Of a DNA stretch of 64,000 nt, positions 38,903 through 54,039 are shown piece after piece. The DNA is taken from IMG/VR virus record IMGVR_UViG_3300025000_000055; one strand, 5' to 3'. The notes beneath the pieces were generated by a model. The model did not search any database. It was not told where the DNA came from and saw only the letters and a list, made by a program, of their open reading frames with translations. The stretch's first letter is position 1; each line of letters begins with the position of its first letter. The DNA comes from a virus. Taxonomy: Duplodnaviria > Caudoviricetes. The position numbers and the translations under genes are program-made.

Positions 38903-41900
38903 TTAAATATCTTCTTCTATACCATTCATTTTAATTTTAATATAAAAAAGATTTGTATTTTCATTCTCTTTCCTTTTAACTTGGAATTTATTATTAATTT
39001 CTCTTATAGTATTAATTCTATCTAAATATTCTTCTTCATTATCATAGTCAATTGAAACAAAACAACTATTAGGTTCATCTTCCTTACAATATTTAAATAA
39101 ATCTTTCTCAAATAAACATTTAAAACTTTCTGGTTCTCTTGAATCATCAAAGAATAAACCATGAGTTTTACAAAAAGGAGTTATAATACCACTAGTGCCT
39201 GGATCTGTTATGTTCACATAGGTCGTTAATCTATGCAGTTCTCTTAAGAACTTCCCTAAGATTTCCCTAGGATACCAGACTATATCATTAACCTAAATTT
39301 ATTAGGTTACTTCCCACTTCGATTTAAGGGATTCTCACCCACCTACTTAGGCCCTACTCCTATTGCTTATTTCAAAGCCAAAAGGGATAGTCGTTGAACT
39401 TTATTGTTATAATTAATAAGTGTAATCTTTTGATATGTGTACCCATGAAGTTCTTTTTCTTAAATGTTTAACCAAACCCCTATAAGATTCATTTTGTTTT
39501 TTGTCTTTAACTATCATATTCATCTCCTTTCTTATCTCATATTCAGAATAACCTTTTTCTAATAAAATACATATCCCACGAATTAATGTTTCTGAATATT
39601 TATTACATCCATGTCTTTCACCTTTAACTGGTTTTTGTAACCCTTCTCTCCATGAATGATCAATATTTTCTTTAGGAGTACTCCATTCTAAATTTTTATA
39701 AAAATTATTAGTTTTATTAGTATCTTTATGATTTATATGAATATATTTTTCATTAAAAAACACTTTTAATGGTAGAAAATAATATCCGACTAATCTATGT
39801 ATATAAAATTTTCTTTGTTTTTTGTATCCTTTTAGCGTACATCTTAAATAACCATCCTTATCAGTAAAAGGACTTAAAAATCTACCAGTTAATTTATTTC
39901 TAACCTTACCATAATTACTAATTTCGTATATATTTTTAACATTATATTCTATAATATCTTTCCATTCTTCTTCATGGGGTTTAATAAATATTATCATTTA
40001 ATACACACCTCTTAACATATAACAATCTTAGCTGCGGATTACTCAATCCTAAAACCTTGTTACCATACCTTAGTTGATTAGACTAAGCCACTATATTGTT
40101 TCCGATATAGTTTGGTAGTTTTAGGCTATAAGAGATTTCCCGACAATTAAAGAAGTTTTCATCATAAGTTACCCTATAATGCTCCAATCCAGTAGAGTTA
40201 CCGCATACGTTAATATCGAGCTTCCCAATGTAAGATGGATGAATATCACGATATTTTTTTGATATCCTATTGTCATTCTTACCACCCAAACTATTCGGAC
40301 CTTTAATAGTATATCTTAGTTTACTAAAAAAATCCATATCATTTATTTTATCCGTTGTGTTCACATTACTCGTCAAATAATGCAGTTCTCTTATGAACTT
40401 CCCTAAGTTTCCCTAGGATACCAGACTATATCTTCATCCTTAATTAAGTTAATTACTCTCATTTAAGGAGCTCCCCGTTTTAACTCACCATTATAGACTT
40501 GTGAGATTACTCTACTTCATATGTTAATTTCTATAACATATTTTTCGATAGTCTTTGAACTTTCACCTTTATATAATTTTTTCCAAGATCTCCCTGATTT
40601 GATATTACTCATTAAAGTATAAAGATTTCTAATTTCCCTTTTTGATAAATTATTTAAACCTAGTTTATCAATTATCTTTTTATGTTTTAATCCTTGTTTC
40701 ATAAACTTAATTATATTTCTTATTAATTCTTCATCATATCTTTTTTGTTTACATTTATTCAAATCAATATTTTCGGTTAAATAAATTCGTGTTCTTTTAG
40801 CTCTTAAATCATTTATAAATGTACGTATATTTTTTTTATTTTCTAAATTTAATTCATAAATTATAATATCAGTACTTTTATTTTCTTGTAATAAAGATAC
40901 TATTTGTTTAGATAATTTATCCGAGAATTTACTTAAAGGATGTTTTTCTCCAATAGGTTTATTTCCTTCCTTATATGAATACGCAATATTTTCTTTCTGA
41001 GTACATTTTTCTAAAAGATCTAATTTATTAAATTTATTTATACTATCTTTATGATGAATTATCATTGATTTATCAGATATATTAAAATCTGACATAAAAT
41101 AATAAGCTAATAATCTATGAATTAAAAAATTTCTAAATTTACCATCTATACATGATAATTGAATATATTCGTATTCTTTAGTATTTTTAGAATTTTTTAA
41201 AATCCTATTAAATTTATCATTTCTAATAAATCCATCAGAATTTATAGAATAATTCTTTTTAACTTGGGGCAAATCTATTTTTACCCAATCTTCTTTTTTC
41301 ATATCTTTCTCTTTTCTTTATATAATTTTTATTTTTCTTGGAAAATATATCTTTATAAAGGTTATTAGCTGCGGATTGTCCAATCCTTACTGTTATTACT
41401 ATACCAGGTTAATTACTCCTGCCACTATAATATCACTATTATAGATTAGTAAGTAAGGCCCTAAGGAGTTCCCCGACAATTAAAGAAGATTCTTTACAAT
41501 ATTACTACTGTAAAGGACAGTATCTATCAAATCTTAATAATCCTGAATCATGTAAATTCTGAATTAGCATATCTCCAGGAAATTTAAATATTTCTTCAAT
41601 ATTTTCTAAAGTCATTTTTTTACCTAAACTAATAACTCTATTCATTCTTTTACTAAATGCTTTAGTTAATAAAGAAGCAATATATTCATTACATCTTAAT
41701 CTTTTATTATCTATAGACATATTATCTTTCTTTCTTAATTCATCAAAATTTTGAATCATCCATCTGATAACAGAATAAACATTCTTTCGATGTTCATAAT
41801 CTATCTTTAATATATTCTTAGTTGTTTCATCTATTAATCTATCAAAGAAGATTAAAGTATTTAATCCTTTCTCATAGTAGTTATAAGCCATAGTAGCACT

Positions 41901-45519: not shown

Positions 45520-46563
45520 TTAATATCCTCGATACCCATCTTCAATTTTTTCTATAAATTTAATCTCATATTTATTAAGTTTAAAGGTTTTTATACCCAT
45601 CCATGAAGAATATGTTGGTTGAATTTCTTTTTTATATTCCATCGCAGGAAATCTAAAACCTGTTTTAGTTATACAAGTTAATAACTTACTATTTCTTTTT
45701 ATAGATTCTTCTTTAATATTAGGATATCCACCTTCAAATAGAGAAAACCCATCAACTACAATATAATTTCTATATTGTAGTTGTTTTGTAGTATAATAAA
45801 CTCTCATTAATAAACCTGGAACTAATTTAGATTTAGGGGAAGATTTATATCTATCATAATAAAACTCTCTGGTTTTTCTATGAAGAATAAGTTTCTTTCC
45901 ATTATCCATAAAAGAAACAAACTCTCCATTTTCAAGTACAAATAATCTAATTTCATATTTTCTAGATGGATTTATAGTAAACTTTGGAGTTGAACCTGAA
46001 ATAATATGTGTGTTTATAATCTTTCTATTAATAAAATCTAAAACAAAATCATATCTACCATATTTTTTATTACAATTAAAATCAAATTTTGCAATGTTAG
46101 TTAAAGTAACTTTACATGTTTTATTAGCATAAAACATAAAACGATCTGCTGAATTACTGACAGAATCAATTCTATGAATAAAAACTTGTGGATGTTTATT
46201 TAAATCACTAGTTCTAGTTATTAATGTTTCATAATATTTAAAAATTATTATATGATAACCTGGTTTAATCATAACTTTAGCTTGTTCGAATTGATTAAAA
46301 GATTTTGTATTAACATCTTTATATTCAATATCAGAATATCCATCACGAGTTATACCAATTGGCCTATTAAACTTTTCGTCTGTTATTACCATAACATATT
46401 CATTTGGTATCACAAATTCAGATAAAAAACAATTCTTTAAATTTTTATTCTCAAAATAAATATTATACTTTTTACCAACTTCTGTTGTATCAAGTTCATA
46501 TGACTTAAAATCTGTAGGTTCAAACGCATCGACTTCATTCCTAACTACAATCATAAAAAACAA
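45520..46563 (-). CDS. Hypothetical protein
   Basis: 347 aa ORF. Confidence 0.75.
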   Translation of the reverse strand: MFFMIVVRNEVDAFEPTDFKSYELDTTEVGKKYNIYFENKNLKNCFLSEFVIPNEYVMVITDEKFNRPIGITRDGYSDIEYKDVNTKSFNQFEQAKVMIKPGYHIIIFKYYETLITRTSDLNKHPQVFIHRIDSVSNSADRFMFYANKTCKVTLTNIAKFDFNCNKKYGRYDFVLDFINRKIINTHIISGSTPKFTINPSRKYEIRLFVLENGEFVSFMDNGKKLILHRKTREFYYDRYKSSPKSKLVPGLLMRVYYTTKQLQYRNYIVVDGFSLFEGGYPNIKEESIKRNSKLLTCITKTGFRFPAMEYKKEIQPTYSSWMGIKTFKLNKYEIKFIEKIEDGYRGY

Positions 46564-46680
46564 CTCCTCTAAATTATAAATATTCTTATATAATATAAAC
46601 TTTTCAAAAATGTTTATTTGTTAATACAATAATATATAAATGAAAAAAAATGAGGAATAAATATTTCCTCATTAAATTTA

Positions 46681-47871
46681 TTAAAATCTTGCACCTTTAT
46701 ATAATTTTCTTAAATATTCATCTGAAACAAATACATCACCATTGTCTTTTATTTTCTTATCACCATTTTCCTTTTTATCTATTATATCTTGTTGTTTAGG
46801 AGGATTGGAAACAACTATCAATTTCTTATTTTCAACTTCTTTCTTTTTAAACTTTTCATACTCAACTATAAATATAGCTGGTAAACCTGAAATACAGGTA
46901 TCATTGAACTTAGTTCTAACTGTAGCGTACCAGGCCAATGCATCACCATGTAGAGTTTGGATACTACTATTAAATAAATTATCATTTACTTTAAAGAAAT
47001 TTAATAGTTGTAATCGGTCAGATTCTTTTGAATTACTTAGAAAATCATTTATGGATTTTTTAAGTAATTTTACACTACCAACATTACAAACAATTAGTGA
47101 ATTATTTTGTTTCTTAGAAGAAATAACATCTTCAAGAATAACCCTTTTCATAATCATTATAATTGGTTCTTCCGATAACCCATCAAGCAATTTTCTTATA
47201 TCTTCATCTTCTTTCATAATATCATCACTAAATGAACTAAGCTTATTATTAACTGTTTTAATAACTTCATCATCATTCAATAAGGATAACGTTTTTATTA
47301 AATCAGTGTATTTAGCACCAAGCTCAATCTTGAGCTCTACTCCTATATTTCTAATACAAAAAGTTATCAGCTGGTCTTTTACTAAATCTAACGAGCAATT
47401 ATTTAAAAGCTCATTTTCAATAAGACCAATTTGAATTTCCGGATTAATATTAACTTTTCTATCTTCTGTATTATCTGGGGCTGGAGAAGTTGTTGATCTT
47501 TCTTCTAGCACTTCCTTTAATACTTTTTTACTGTTTTTTGATAACAAAAATTCATTAGATATATCATTAATGAATTTATCTGTATCGATAACTAAACCAT
47601 TAGCATGTTCGTTAACAAGTTCACTCATATTTTTGAATTCATCAATAACATTGTTGTCAGTGCTGCTTTCTTCATCTAGAAAATTTTCTTTAAGAAATTC
47701 TACGACATTATCTTTTTCCCATATTCCTCCAGGAACATGAATATCAATAAGATAAGATTCATGTTCTTCAATATATTTTTTGAATTCTTCCCTGGTATTA
47801 ACATTTGTCGGGAGATTGTCAAAAAGTTCTTTTAAAATCTCCATTTTTTTCTTACCTAAATCCCCAGCCAT
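46681..47871 (-). CDS. Hypothetical protein
   Basis: 396 aa ORF with RBS. Confidence 0.75.
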   Translation of the reverse strand: MAGDLGKKKMEILKELFDNLPTNVNTREEFKKYIEEHESYLIDIHVPGGIWEKDNVVEFLKENFLDEESSTDNNVIDEFKNMSELVNEHANGLVIDTDKFINDISNEFLLSKNSKKVLKEVLEERSTTSPAPDNTEDRKVNINPEIQIGLIENELLNNCSLDLVKDQLITFCIRNIGVELKIELGAKYTDLIKTLSLLNDDEVIKTVNNKLSSFSDDIMKEDEDIRKLLDGLSEEPIIMIMKRVILEDVISSKKQNNSLIVCNVGSVKLLKKSINDFLSNSKESDRLQLLNFFKVNDNLFNSSIQTLHGDALAWYATVRTKFNDTCISGLPAIFIVEYEKFKKKEVENKKLIVVSNPPKQQDIIDKKENGDKKIKDNGDVFVSDEYLRKLYKGARF

Positions 47872-47995
47872 CGTACTACCCCCTAAATTTCATATTTTTT
47901 TTTACATAATAATTACAAGGAACATAGATAAAATTAAATCTTTTATTTATCTATTATAATAATATATATTTATAATGCTAAAAATACTAAAAATG

Positions 47996-48027
47996 AATAT
48001 ACCGACATATTAATATGTCGGTATATT
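47996..48027. terminator. Perfect 32-bp palindrome, probable terminator
   Basis: AATATACCGACATATTAATATGTCGGTATATT immediately after the RNAP gene stop. Confidence 0.7.
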
Positions 48028-48035
48028 TTTATTAA

Positions 48036-50922
48036 TCATACTTTAATATCAATAACGAACATTTCTTCTTTAATTCTTCGTCTCTCAACTTCTTCATCTA
48101 AAAGTTTTTCGAAATCTTTTGTAGTACCAACAAATACTTTATTTTCCTTATATTCATTAATAATGTCTATTCGTCTTTTAATATCTTTAAATTCTTCATT
48201 ATTACTTATAAAGAATTTTCCATCATAAAATTTACCTTCAAGAAACCCAGTATTAATATCTATATCAAATAATTCATTATTAAATTCAATTTTTAAACCC
48301 ATAGATTTCAAAAAGGCTCCTAATATTTCAATATTTCTATTTTTAAAATTTGGTTTATATTTAAAATCTTTTATAGGGTTTAATCTTGTCATTAAATTTT
48401 CACCTAAATTACGTCTACCTATAACAGATGACCTATAAAATAAATGTAGTTGAGCTATTAGTTCAGTTGGAACACCTATATTAGTATTAAGATTTTCATC
48501 AATACCAATTCTTATAGGAGTCTTAGAATATAATTCCTGATGAGTTTTAGCCTTATTAGATTTTTCAGGTAAACCTTTTCTAGATAAAGTTCCAGTTGAT
48601 CTAGCTGAAAAACCTTTCTTAGCTGTTTGCATTAATTTCATTACATACATATCACCAACTACTAACTTTTTCATCATTTTAATTTTCCTACCAAATCTAT
48701 TTGTATAAACATCATATTGTTCAATCCAATCATGTTCTTCATATAATTGAATAAGTTTATCAAATAAAAATTCTTCTTCCCATAAAGGAGGTATATGAAT
48801 AAATACACCTTCTTCAACTAAATTATTAAAAAATTCTTCTTTACTAATAACACTTAATCTCTTTAAATATTGTCTTAATTTTTCTTCTTGGTCTTTATTA
48901 AAATAACTTATTATATTAAGAAATAAATCTTCCTTTTCTTTTATGTCAGTCATTGTTTGAATACGTTCTACAGTTCTATTACAAATAAAAGTAATTGATT
49001 GTTCAAAAAGCTGGTATGAGTTTACAATTGTTTTAGACCATATCTTCATCTCAAATGAGATGCCTCCCGTTTCGGGTTTCCCCTACTCTACTTACTTCTT
49101 CAGTTATAAGTAAATTATAACCTATGCTTTCGATGGTCGTTGAGCATATTTCAAATATTAATATTTGAAACTTCGCTGCGGATTATTCAATCTTAAACCT
49201 TTTTACCATACCTGAGTAATTACTTCAGCCCTTATCTATATGTCACCATGATAAGTTGGTAGATTAAGATTAGCGAACTTTCCCGCAATTAGAGAGGTTT
49301 TAAATCGCCTAAACCTTACCAGTCCAGCGATTGATCACAGATAAACTGTTAAACAGAAGGTCTACACGTTCTCCAGTTTCTAAAAATGGCATCTCATCAT
49401 CAGGTAATATCTTTGATATAACACCTTTGTTACCATATCTCGTTGTATTCACATAGAACGTTAATCTATGCAGTTCTCTCATGAACTTCCCTAGTTTTCA
49501 CTAAGATACTAGACTATATCATTAACCTAAATAAATTAGGTTACTTCCTATTTCGATTTAAGGGATTCTCACCCACCTACTTAGGCCCTACTCCTATTGT
49601 ACATTGCAGTACCTAAGGGATAGTCGTTGAACTTTATTCCTTATATAAGGAATCTTAGCTGCGGATTACTCAATCTTTTAATAATATAAATATTATTAAA
49701 AGCTCTAAGAGCCTCCCCGACAATTAAAGAAGTTTTCTATATATGTCACCACATATAGGGGCTAAGCTATGTAACCCGTTACTTTCTGACCCACTTCTAA
49801 ATAGGCATCTTTTTCAACTAAAAATTCTATTACTATATTGGAAAATACTGAGTTATTTTCTTCTCTCCATTTATATTTTTCGTCTAATATATTTTTTGCT
49901 TTTCTCATATAAAAACTTATTTCTCTAGAATATTTAGAACCAGAATCAATTATCTGTTTACATCTTTTAAATATTCTTTCATAATAAACTAATTGCATTT
50001 TATAATATTTCATTATCTGTCTATTAAAATCATTCTCTTCCAATTCATCTAAAGTTTTATTACAATATATATCTATATCAATAATTTTACCTTTACCTTC
50101 AATAAAGAATAATACATCAGAAGTAAAATCAATCTTTCTAAGATTAGATTTCTTTAAATCATATAATAATTGATTATTATGAATTCTCCTCTTAGCACAA
50201 ATTATTTTATCCTTAACATATTCGTTTATATCAGGAAATGTCTTATAATTATTACCATTCCCATATATATTACAAAAGATATCATTATCATTTAATGAAA
50301 CTTTAACTCTCTCAACTTCTGTTGAAACCATTCTTCTTGATAATGATTCTGAACATACAATAGCATCTTCAATAGTATTATTCTCTAAAAGATACATAAA
50401 CTTAACATTAGCACCATAACAATAATTCATATCTTCATCATAAGAAGAACTCTTATAAAGAACTTCTCCTTTATATATTGAAGTCCCAACTTCTTTATTA
50501 TCAATATTATCAGTATTATATTTGAAACCATATCTTTCTGTTAAATCTTCAACGTTTTTCTTTTCTATAATATCATATTGGTCATTTTCTTTATCATATA
50601 TGAATAATAAATATATTTGTTCTTCATTTTCACCATCTGTAAACTTACTAATTTTATCAATAATAACACAATCATTTTTAACTTTTTTATAACCAGTTGA
50701 ATTCTTACCAACTATATTTTCATAATTAGTAAAAATTCTTGGAAATTCGGGATTATTTAGAGTAACACATTGCTTCAAGTGAGCTGTAAACATAATATTT
50801 CTTGATGAACTAATATAACCTGGATTTGTTAAAAGAGTCATCCCAAATATATCATCTTTACCTTTAAACTCCTTTTCTTTTTCTTGTAATATTTCTTTCA
50901 ATGACATTGTAGTTTTATACAA
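48036..50922 (-). CDS. rpoB: Phage RNA polymerase beta-like C-terminal subunit (probably non-virion), join(50922..49774,49440..49326,49024..48036), about 750 aa
   Basis: Splicing restores KVTG|RYGNKGV (GRHGNKG motif) and INRL|NSYQLFE (SRMN.GQ..E motif; phase-1 junction T|TA). VGDMYVMKL...ARSTG follows. Confidence 0.9.
49025..49325 (-). mobile_element. Divergent ORF-less group I intron, apparently lacking P9
   Basis: AATTGCGGG, AATCCGCAGC, CTCAACGACCA, AAGATATGGTCT. P1: exon AAUCGCU pairs with GGCGAUU. Only 10 nt separate P7 from the terminal G. Confidence 0.85.
49441..49773 (-). mobile_element. ORF-less family group I intron in the beta-C gene
   Basis: P1: exon GGGU pairs with GCCC; ends GTGAATACAACG. 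Confidence 0.93.
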
Positions 50923-51013
50923 ATCTGTGTACCCCCTTATTTAGAAATTATTATTGAGAATGTATATTCATATAATATATAAATACACATTCTCTAGTTT
51001 TTATTATAAAAAA

Positions 51014-52970
51014 TTATATAGCTTTTTGAAATTGTTTTTCTTGTGATTTTTCTAACCTATCACATAATTCAAAAATATTTAATAATTGACCATTTTCTTC
51101 TGGTTCAACATGCGATAGTTGTTTTTCTAATATAGGTAATGACCTATTAAATAATTCGTATCTTAATTTTTCATTAGTAAGAAATTCTTTTCTAAATTTT
51201 CTACTATCAAATTTAATATCTTTTACACCTTCAATATATTTATAAGGATTACGACCAGCAATTAATTCATTATCTTCAGCAAATCTTAGTTGAGTTAAAA
51301 TAGGGTCAAAACCAGTGGATTGGTCATAAATAAGATTTACAAATTGACCAGCTTTATTTGTTCTAGATTTTAGAAACTCAGCTCTTACACCAAATCCATC
51401 AAAACCATTTTCTTCTTTCTTAAATTTTTCTGAACCTAAAGCTATAAAATTAACTAATAAATTAGCATAATAGATCGATTTATTCACATTGGTTGTCAGT
51501 CAATGCAGTTCTCTTATGAACTTCCCTAATTTTCATTAGGATACTAGACTATATCTTCATCCTTAATAAATTTTATTAAGGAGTTACCCATTTCGTAAAG
51601 AACTCTGAAAAGTTCACCTCACCATTATTGACTTGTGAGTCTACTCCTACTTTACTTTTATTAAAAGTAACGTCATCAGATAGTCGTTGAACTTTATTCC
51701 TTATTAATTAATTAAGGAATCTTAGCTGCGGATTACTCAATCTTTTTATTATATAATAAAAAGCTCTAAGAGCTTCCCCGACAATTAAAGTAATGCTAAC
51801 ATAATATTACTATTATGCCACCCTAAATTTAGGTGCATTCCCACCCGTTAAGTTCACATAGTTCGTCAAACTATGCAGTTCTCTTATGAACTTCCCTAAG
51901 CTTTCCTTAGGATACCAGACTATATCATTAACCTAATAAGAATTATTAGGTTACTTCCTATTTCGATTTAAGGGAATTTCACCCACCTACTTAGGCCCTA
52001 CTCCTATTGATCATTTCAGATCCAATGGGATAGTCGTTGAACTTTATTCCTTATTAATTAATAATAAGGAATCTTAGCTGCGGATTACTCAATCTCTTAA
52101 TAATATTAATGTATTAAAAGCTCTAAGAGCTTCCCCGACAATTAAAGAAGTTATTCAACATACATTACTGTATGAGGCCCCACAAATCTCGAGTTTAGGG
52201 ATACTCTGATCCATCTTCATATATAATAATTGTGGTTGCGTTTTATGCATAGGGTTAATTTCAATTTTTTGATTAATATGATTTATAGCAATAACATTTA
52301 TGTTATAGGCTTTTATAATTGGCATTAGTCTCTTATAAAATTGGGCCAAAGCTTTAGCAACTCTGTTAGCATAAGTCCCACCTTCCATTTCATTAGAAGC
52401 ATCTTTTGAAGCAACAGTTGGAATTGAATCTATAATCATAACTGTTGGAACAAAGGTTTTAATGGGTCTATTAAATTCATCAACTAATCCTGTATCATAA
52501 GTATAATCTTTTCTATTAACTTCTTTCTCTTGAGCTATTTCAACTATACTATTAAATATATCTTCAATATAATTTTTTTCTTGTTTCAATAAATATTTAT
52601 CATCAAGTTCTTGCTGAGTCATAGATGTTACATTTTTTATTCTGGTATAAGATAATACTTGTTCTAAGTCGTAATGTTGAACAAATGCATTATCAACAAA
52701 TTTTCTAACAATATTGGCTGCAATTTGAATAGCAAAAGTAGTTTTAGCAGTACCAGCCTTACCTATAATTGTCATAAACGTACCACCAACTATACCAATA
52801 GAAGAATAAGTAGTTATAAGTTTCTCATCTAAATCTCTAACTTCCACCATATACCCATTTCTATAATCAAATGGTACAAAACCTGTTGGATAACAAATGG
52901 ATGTTTGTGTTGGACTAAATAAACCCTTTTTATCTTTTTCTCTTAATCTTGAGAGCATTTTATTAGCCAT
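51014..52970 (-). CDS. recA: RecA/UvsX-like recombinase, join(52970..52197,51845..51831,51475..51014), about 416 aa
   Basis: Walker A GKAGTAKT, Walker B IIDS, INHI. Splicing restores QSIP|GGNAP|IYYA (RecA TPGG.ALKFYA). Confidence 0.88.
51476..51830 (-). mobile_element. ORF-less group I intron 2 in recA
   Basis: P1: exon CACCU pairs with GGGUG; ends GTGAATAAATCG. Confidence 0.92.
51846..52196 (-). mobile_element. ORF-less group I intron 1 in recA
   Basis: P1: exon CCCU pairs with GGGG; ends GTGAACTTAACG. Confidence 0.92.
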
Positions 52971-53103
52971 TTTTATTTTTCATCTCCTTATAAAATTTTA
53001 TTGACTTTCTTTATATGATAGTTGTTCTAAAGATAGAATTCTAAAAAATATAAAAAAAATAAAGAATGGAATTAACCATTCTTTATTTTATTAAAAGTAT
53101 ATT

Positions 53104-54039
53104 TTAATATTTCTGTTTTATGATTTGACCATTATTCAACATAATGAAGAATACTTTAAAATGATGTTCTAGCTGAGATAGGGCATTTGAATAAGTCCTC
53201 TTAACCCTATTATTATAATACTCTGAATTAACAAATAATGTTACTGCATTAAATCTTTGTGCCTTTAGTTCTTCAATAACATACTGCAATTCAACATTGT
53301 TAAATTCAACGATGTTGAAAGCATTAGTATTACTATATTTTTGATGCAAACTTTTTAGTATACTAACTTCCGAACGCATTGACAAAATAGTATGAGTTGG
53401 TCTATTAGGTCTATAATTTGATATAATGTATGGTGTATATTTATCACCATTTTTAGATTCTACAATTTTTTTAGAAAATAGAAGTCTATTTATTTTATTA
53501 GTAATTTCTATTTCATCCCCGTTAGATTTATCTACATCCGTACTAATTAAACTATCCTCAATAATAGTGAATGTATAATCAATATCTGATTTAGTATACT
53601 TATCGTACAATTTAATCTCTAAAGGATTATCTTTTTTATTTATACTTGCAATAATCGTTAATTCACCTTCAAGTGAATAATTCTCTAGTAAACAAATAAA
53701 TTGTTTACTAATATTGACAAGCATTCTTTTACCAATATTTAATGTAATTAGCATGATATCAGTATTATGCTCATTTTTACTTTCAACTATAAATGGGTTA
53801 AAGTCTTTCTTCCCATAAATAATACTTGTTGGTGTACTGGTAAGAATACCAGGTTCTTTCATTTTAATAAATTTTAACAAACCATCATTATCCAATGGCG
53901 GAATTATATTCCCCATACATCTAATGAAACAATTCACAACAATTACAGGGGAATCTTTTCTTTTAAAAAAGGCACTAGTCTTACTATTAAGAGTATTAAT
54001 CTCCCACGGTCTTGGACTTTCGTTAAAAATTCCTATCAT
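53104..54039 (-). CDS. Hypothetical protein (paralog of the next gene)
   Basis: Shares FNE..PWEI, NPFIV.S and RP.RPT with 54088..54996. Confidence 0.75.
   Translation of the reverse strand: MIGIFNESPRPWEINTLNSKTSAFFKRKDSPVIVVNCFIRCMGNIIPPLDNDGLLKFIKMKEPGILTSTPTSIIYGKKDFNPFIVESKNEHNTDIMLITLNIGKRMLVNISKQFICLLENYSLEGELTIIASINKKDNPLEIKLYDKYTKSDIDYTFTIIEDSLISTDVDKSNGDEIEITNKINRLLFSKKIVESKNGDKYTPYIISNYRPNRPTHTILSMRSEVSILKSLHQKYSNTNAFNIVEFNNVELQYVIEELKAQRFNAVTLFVNSEYYNNRVKRTYSNALSQLEHHFKVFFIMLNNGQIIKQKY

Follow-up and report, generated by a model that had tools for sequence, protein, structure and literature searches.

Can a group I intron work without the P9 domain that normally adjoins its 3′ splice site? 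The question is raised by an intron in IMG/VR record IMGVR_UViG_3300025000_000055, a 64,000-nucleotide (nt) stretch of AT-rich DNA from an uncultured AR9/PBS1-like jumbo phage of groundwater; we refer to this whole stretch as the window. The intron interrupts the ortholog of AR9 g089, which encodes the C-terminal half of the non-virion RNA polymerase β subunit (β-C) at 50940-48036 on the minus strand, as are all features of this gene given below. It spans 49025..49325 (301 nt, phase 1), carries no open reading frame (ORF) and has neither P2 nor P9. A second intron in the same gene, at 49773-49441 (333 nt, phase 0, with P2 and P9-P9.2), belongs to the family common in the window and served for comparison. 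We conclude, with a probability of roughly 0.78, that the intron at 49025..49325 functions as a group I intron, combining an IA2-like core with a re-arranged periphery which lacks P9 and P2. Its tail-less appearance does not come from a mis-drawn splice site.

The splice sites are fixed to the nucleotide at the sequence level, because P1, P10, the terminal G and a gapless alignment to intron-free homologs all agree. The minus strand around the intron reads ...AUCAAUCGCU|GGACUGG...GAAGAUAUGGUCUAAAACAAUUG|UAAACUCAUACC. The last 7 nt of exon 2, AAUCGCU (49326..49332), end in the splice-site U and pair with GGCGAUU (49309-49303, intron positions 17-23) in a 7-base-pair (bp) P1 with the U.G at the junction, as is usual for group I introns. 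Within the internal guide sequence (49303..49315) this strand is preceded by GGUUUA (49315-49310), which pairs with UAAACU, the first 6 nt of exon 3 (49019..49024), in a 6-bp P10 that adjoins P1. The last base of the intron is the omega-G at 49025. Joining the exons restores the open frame, and the spliced ...SVINR|LNSYQLFEQ... aligns without gaps to the uninterrupted genes of AR9 (g089, ...LNPLGVFNRLNPSQLIEQ...) and Staphylococcus phage SA1 and agrees with intron-free alleles in four further viral contigs. The first-pass annotation had placed a group I intron without a P9 domain at these positions, with a terminal G restoring INRLNSYQLFE; splice sites, frame and an unfolded 10-nt tail bear this out. 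The junction of the neighbouring intron, GQKVTG|RYGNKGV, likewise agrees with homologs, and the exon between the two introns is 115 nt long, as had been reported.

Only 10 nt, UAAAACAAUU, lie between the P7 3′ strand AUGGUC (49041-49036) and the terminal G. The whole 3′ domain, UAAAACAAUU plus that G, occupies 49025..49035 and holds no P9, P9.1 or P9.2. The tail has no predicted fold (0 kcal/mol), together with 50 nt of exon it folds no better than shuffled sequence (z +0.44), and a P9.0-like contact could comprise at most 2 bp (AA/UU). Thus the P9 hairpin that follows P7 in group I introns is missing, and so is the extended domain 9 (P9.0, P9.1, P9.2) typical of subgroup IA2. The earlier description of the other introns in the window as carrying P9 with a GAAA loop, P9.1 and P9.2 over about 70 nt was accurate: the tail after the S element measures 70-72 nt in all ten of these siblings, folds into these three hairpins, is shut by a short P9.0-like helix and ends in UGAAYNYANCG. 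Folded together, the final 4 nt of P7 and the 70-nt tail of the neighbouring intron (74 nt) reach −17.6 kcal/mol, with three hairpins and a 4-bp P9.0-like closing helix. The target intron is the only tail-less one among the 11 of the window, and in the complete genome of a sister phage (249,853 bp) only its ortholog lacks the tail among about 18 introns with the shared Q element; the other ~17 belong to the same P9-bearing family as the ten siblings. As judged by eye, siblings with readable 5′ ends (at 49773, ~58400, 51830, 52206 and ~8440) form at most about two P10 pairs in a row; automatic detection of P1 and P10 succeeded on the target and was too noisy in the AT-rich siblings.

The remainder of the intron is not that of a sibling which has simply lost its tail. 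The target shares with the ten siblings the P, Q, R and S elements (e.g. UAAUCCGCAGC) as well as P7.1 and P7.2, and these core elements are all that they have in common, since P2, a simple P5 and the 70-72-nt P9-P9.2 tail of the sibling family are absent and P5 is extended; the nearest relative found is a P9-less gyrB intron described below. An 11-mer, GGUGACAUAUA, occurs in both the target (49237-49247) and the neighbouring intron (49740-49750). We considered it as a sign of common descent and rejected it, as it forms a GUGA-capped AU hairpin in different helices (P5b of the target, P2 of the neighbour). The intron had also been called an unusually reduced ribozyme. This holds for P9, P9.1 and P9.2, and for P2 as well, and does not hold for the intron as a whole, which at 301 nt is nearly as long as its 333-nt neighbour and is not minimal, with P5a, P5b, P5c, P6a, P7.1 and P7.2 all present.

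In the structural model, P1 leads directly into P3 via UAAAA and hence leaves no P2. The P3 5′ strand and the P4-P6 domain (49144..49297) are supported by hand-modelled pairing, by the free-energy fold and by covariation in 11 related introns. P4 (UGCGGG/UCCGCA) is followed by P5 and a long P5a with bulged AAAA, the A-rich bulge of the P5 extension lying at about 49203-49200; P5a terminates in a three-way junction with P5b, capped by a GUGA tetraloop, and P5c, a layout which we take to resemble the Tetrahymena P5abc domain. P6/P6a is an 11-bp AU hairpin. P7 is formed by GACCAU in the R element (49133..49138) and AUGGUC in the S element (49036..49041), a pairing supported by the model and by covariation in which a C-G pair takes the place of the relatives' U-A pair. 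Downstream of the P7 5′ strand, 49074..49121 holds P7.1 (49121-49103), the module GUAGAGUA and P7.2 (GGG-GAAA-CCC; 3 bp with a GAAA cap, 49082-49074), identified from a conserved 18-mer and the fold, which gives the two hairpins characteristic of IA2. The P3 3′ strand GGGAGG and the P8 hairpin occupy 49047..49068, and P8 stays paired in sister phages. A search by eye for an 11-nt GAAA receptor in the intron found only a UAUGG half-site in P5a.

The unconstrained minimum-energy fold of the intron (−72.3 kcal/mol, z −2.64) recovers P3, P4, P5, P5a-c, P6a, P7.2 and P8. We then aligned 11 introns for covariation: the target, a sister-phage copy, the AR9 g189 intron, one each from phages vB_BpuM-BpSp (BpSp) and Goslar, and six from metagenomes. 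Across this set 82.2% of the model pairs are paired; shifting the 3′ partners by 1-3 columns lowers this to 36-47%. Changes on both sides are seen in 34 of the 56 model pairs, and in 500 shuffles the observed values were never reached. Pairing in P3, P4 and P7 amounts to 92-97%. With its conserved P3-P8 core, P3/P7 pseudoknot and P, Q, R and S elements, the target is, by comparative sequence and structure analysis, a group I intron with an IA2-like core and a structural variant that lacks P9 and the domain-9 features.

Comparison with sister phages points to maintained function. The β-C protein is 87% identical in exon 3 of three viral contigs from one habitat, and the intron is kept at the same site in all three of these sister phages, with identical S element, tail and P10. 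About 8% of positions differ between the target and the sister copies, and the changes respect the structure: P8 is nearly all rewritten (CAUCUCA/UGAGAUG versus CAGUUCU/AGGACUG) and still has 7 bp, a C-G pair of P5a becomes U-A, and an A-U pair of P7 becomes G.U. In one sister contig (IMGVR_UViG_3300025000_000078) the P6 stem has been rebuilt around a 341-codon ORF (L006:1824-2849) that matches the phage homing-endonuclease families PHROG 559, 9084 and 7140; the window's copy and the remaining sister copies hold no ORF. Since helices are kept through change, the host gene encodes a polymerase subunit, presumably an essential one, and one lineage has a homing endonuclease, the intron is very probably spliced, as far as can be read from these sequences.

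Moreover, the tail-less state recurs in other phage genes. The 18-mer over GUAGAGUA and P7.2 occurs exactly in introns of 12 viral and 40 metagenome stretches, many of which retain P9, some of them (L013-L015, L021, L043) P9 only. In six further intron lineages, each checked for the 5′ exon, P10, a P1 with U.G and an unbroken host protein across the junction, only 5-10 nt separate P7 from the terminal G, and P10 measures 4-8 bp. These are a 264-nt intron in gyrB (L038:5345-5608, EG|DSAAG, tail CAAAUUG, P10 of 8 bp); introns in family B DNA polymerase (L029 and L009, VV|DTDS, tail UACUG, 7 bp), RNA polymerase β′ (L035, GKKGS|LRQLFGGRF, tail UACUAAUAG, 6 bp), ribonucleotide reductase (L037, NPCG|EIG, tail CAAAG, 8 of 9 positions paired) and an AAA_24 ATPase (L057, tail UAAAAUUUUG, 4 bp); and nrdD introns in L010 and L045 (tails GAAAAAACG and GAAAAACG, P10 of 6 bp). 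Pfam domains continue across the junctions, for instance at NRDD profile positions 414|415 in nrdD. The gyrB intron shares the architecture of the target, with no P2, a P5abc-like extension and no P9, and is its nearest relative in the alignment (67% identity, versus 58-63% for the others). L057 and L010 are built differently (P5 is short, and extra sequence is inserted between P3 and P4), and therefore the tail-less state is not tied to one scaffold. The nrdD introns (L010:3123-4005 and L045:7485-8369) each carry an ORF upstream of P7, and their tails differ by one A, which indicates that the length of the tether is not strictly fixed. Most tail-less introns have no second intron in the stretches examined, where exons extend up to 406 and 330 codons; L038 has flanking exons of 406 and 199 codons and L010 of 353 and 156. 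Among cultured phages with the same P5 extension (rV5 terL, Staphylococcus EW3, SBSphiJ5, Goslar, AR9 and BpSp) all introns inspected retain P9 and no tail-less form was seen.

On this comparative evidence, the target intron is conserved, probably autonomous, and one instance of a recurrent phage design. A broader reading, to which we would give a little less than even odds, is that phage introns without P9 and P9.0 form a widespread class, in which the terminal G would follow P7 by 4-10 nt, the 3′ splice site would be specified by the terminal G and a long P10 alone, and the core would be braced by a P5abc-like extension or a P3-P4 insertion together with the near-invariant GAAA-capped P7.2. 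To our knowledge, such a class of P9-less phage group I introns has not been described before.

How might the intron work? The 5′ splice site would be set by the 7-bp P1 with its U.G pair, and the 3′ splice site would be set by the terminal G and an unusually solid P10 that adjoins P1. The 10 unstructured, A-rich nt would act as a tether between the end of P7 and the terminal G. Because in known introns the base of the P9 hairpin already adjoins the G-binding site in P7, a short loop in place of that hairpin would, judging from the topology of P9.0, keep the terminal G beside its pocket. The AA/UU pairs could mimic P9.0 in the target; in the 5-nt tails no P9.0 pair would be possible. The 3′ splice site is usually set by P9.0 and P10, both of them weak as a rule, and P9.0 consists of nucleotides just after P7 paired with nucleotides just before the terminal G (PMC6155759). 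The three domains are ordinarily held together by the loop contacts L2-P8 and L9-P5 (PMC2813881); the absence of P2 and of P9 removes the first and the second of these contacts, respectively. Probably the P5 extension, with its A-rich bulge and GNRA-capped P5b, and the GAAA-capped P7.2 hold the core together, and they may compensate for the missing P9. We infer that the intron is spliced in vivo and independently of its neighbour.

Several points weigh against this interpretation. The P5 extension and the P7.2 module are also found in relatives that keep P9 (the AR9 g189 intron and L013-L015), so that their role may be permissive rather than compensatory, allowing P9 to be lost but not having evolved in order to offset its absence. 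The contrast in P10 strength between the target and its P9-bearing siblings was judged by eye on few introns. A search for sequencing runs holding the window returned groundwater DNA runs only and no RNA run. P9 is counted among the mandatory helices (PMC3873408) or as part of the catalytic P3-P9 domain (PMC3984707). The one natural precedent that we found, the trans-spliced IB4 intron Pr.rnl.1 in the mitochondrion of Prasinoderma coloniale, has too few 3′ nucleotides for a P9; its authors called this “very unusual” and P9 “essential”, and suspected a missing third piece or the need for a cofactor (PMC3873408).

The most serious alternative is in line with that suspicion. The intron could be real and spliced in vivo and yet be unable to fold or to carry out the second step by itself, so that a phage or host protein, such as a maturase-like factor, an RNA chaperone or the translating ribosome, would stand in for P9. 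Both P2 and P9, the givers of the two interdomain contacts, are absent, and many group I introns with reduced peripheral RNA rely on proteins (PMC2813881), as the P9-less Prasinoderma intron has been suspected to do (PMC3873408). Nevertheless, no candidate cofactor gene is linked to the target, the ORF is present in only one of the three sister versions and belongs to a nuclease family with no known maturase role, and a large RNA periphery (the P5abc-like extension, P7.1 and P7.2) has been retained. The tail-less design also occurs across phages of very different G+C content, presumably with different hosts, which speaks against one dedicated partner. Dependence on a protein therefore seems unlikely to us, while still deserving serious consideration.

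Far less probable is that the P9-P9.2 domain or the folding of the family intron located 115 nt upstream supplies the missing part; dependence on the neighbouring intron was one option which the first-pass annotation had suggested. The 115-nt spacing is the same in the window and in all three sister phages, as this idea would have it. However, other P9-less introns stand without a second intron in the stretches examined (L038, L010), the target's tail showed no complementarity to the neighbour, and the neighbour's 3′ domain leaves with its own excision. A decaying intron, poorly spliced and either tolerated or in the process of being lost, has a similarly slim chance: a core-associated helix is gone and the window's copy has no ORF, but the presumably essential polymerase gene is otherwise intact, the substitutions in sister phages keep the helices paired, and one sister copy has an intact 341-codon endonuclease ORF. 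Finally, a 3′ splice site further downstream that would include a P9 hairpin, looked for by homolog alignment since it would have overturned the first-pass annotation by its own terms, is next to untenable: it would delete LNSYQLFE..., which aligns one-to-one with intron-free homologs, and P10 matches the first 6 exon nt exactly while the following 50 nt fold no better than shuffled sequence.

We therefore retain the reading of a functional, P9-less group I intron and compare it with known systems. Classical phage IA introns, those of Staphylococcus phage Twort and of T4 td, nrdB and sunY, also lie in essential phage genes and have P7.1/P7.2 between P7 and P3′; unlike the target, they have P9 and further P9.x helices, and in the Twort structure L9 docks on P5. 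Published IA2 introns combine P7.1 and P7.2 between P7 and P3′ with an extended domain 9, and the UGAAYNYANCG of the window's siblings is the type of motif found downstream of P9.2 in IStron IA2 introns (PMC4227781); the target does not have it.

Closer counterparts are found in AR9/PBS1 and vB_BpuM-BpSp, where introns also interrupt the phage multisubunit RNA polymerase gene set and share the core motifs. We compared the AR9 g189 intron (KU878088 152761-152962) and three introns in the BpSp β-C gene. They match the target in the GNRA-capped P5b extension, the GGUAAAAA bulge and the GUAGAGUA/P7.2 region, and in them too the terminal G is preceded by an A-rich segment. In contrast to the target, they retain P9 with a GAAA or GUAA loop, mostly together with P9.1 and P9.2; BpSp intron 2 has P9 only. 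The insertion site of BpSp intron 3 is found 13 nt upstream of that of the target, and AR9 g089 itself is intron-free. In BpSp (L002, KT895374 ~116.8-118.5 kb), the annotated gp155, gp157 and gp158 look like exons of one β-C gene, with a fourth exon of 17 nt (GNKGK) that has no annotated coding sequence. Its introns follow TGR (phase 1), GNKGK (with the gp156 ORF and a 29-nt P9-only tail) and LNPLG.

The Goslar “Intron_gpI” (MK327938 169269-169645) is likewise a jumbo-phage RNA polymerase intron with a P5 extension as in the target. It retains P9 and carries its endonuclease ORF in the P9 loop, whereas the endonuclease of the target lineage sits in P6, which means that P9 was not lost together with an ORF. 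P5-extension-type jumbo-phage introns in L016, L019 and L061 (Goslar) were found inside the catalytic NADFDG(D) motif of RNA polymerase β′.

Shortened sunY ribozymes reportedly show that the chemistry is possible with a very small 3′ recogniser. In an engineered Tetrahymena cis-splicing system, P9.0 and the terminal G suffice as the 3′ recogniser (PMC11417360), from which the same tolerance follows. Such 3′-truncated ribozymes are man-made, usually less efficient and dependent on high Mg2+, whereas the target design is natural and kept by selection. Pr.rnl.1 differs in being organellar, split into two pieces, of subgroup IB4 and a single case, while the P9-less phage introns are cis-spliced, conserved and recurrent. 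Our search of the literature on P9-less, minimal or small group I introns returned only the Prasinoderma case and engineering papers, and a study of Jug phages lists many introns of ~206 nt with no analysis of P9 (PMC12880540).

The introns of the window are poorly covered by the standard covariance model. In a search of 46000-54000, Rfam RF00028 did not match the target even at E≤10 and missed both introns of the β-C gene. Across the window only three of the 11 group I introns, whose Q elements lie at 8584, 16980, 20200, 20742, 40031, 41368, 49175, 49658, 51725, 52077 and 58301, reach the gathering score, which makes RF00028 insensitive here. Automatic annotation would leave these intron-split phage genes fragmented.

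Two further observations concern introns elsewhere in the window. The target had been described as the only phase-1 intron, which is doubtful, since the 3′ exon frame suggests phase 1 also for the intron whose S element lies at 39277. In that region (39277-39286, minus strand) the 3′ exon reads AU|CCA GGC ACU..., and no convincing P1 was found for the 5′ splice site. The β-C gene sits 3′ of a UvsX/RecA-like gene, in the same order as in AR9 and Staphylococcus phage SA1. In the UvsX/RecA-like gene two family introns flank a 15-nt exon, GGUGGGAAUGCACCU (51831-51845, minus strand); the first intron extends to 51846, and the second begins at 51830 with the P1 CACCU/GGGUG.

Overall, the P9-less intron is a new structural variant of group I introns. 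A design lacking both P9 and P9.0 that is natural, conserved and recurrent shows this 3′ part to be dispensable when other peripheral elements are present, and it offers a natural system for studying how the second step of splicing is defined by the terminal G and P10 alone. It also points to compact 3′ ends as an option when ribozymes are engineered for splicing or circular RNA. Introns of this kind escape standard models: within 64 kb Rfam missed the target and seven others, leaving essential phage genes as fragments. If the wider class is real, the shortest 3′ domains known in nature would belong to it; the single case tested, the target, went unreported by the Rfam group I model, and the class may thus add to the essential phage genes that now appear “fragmented”.

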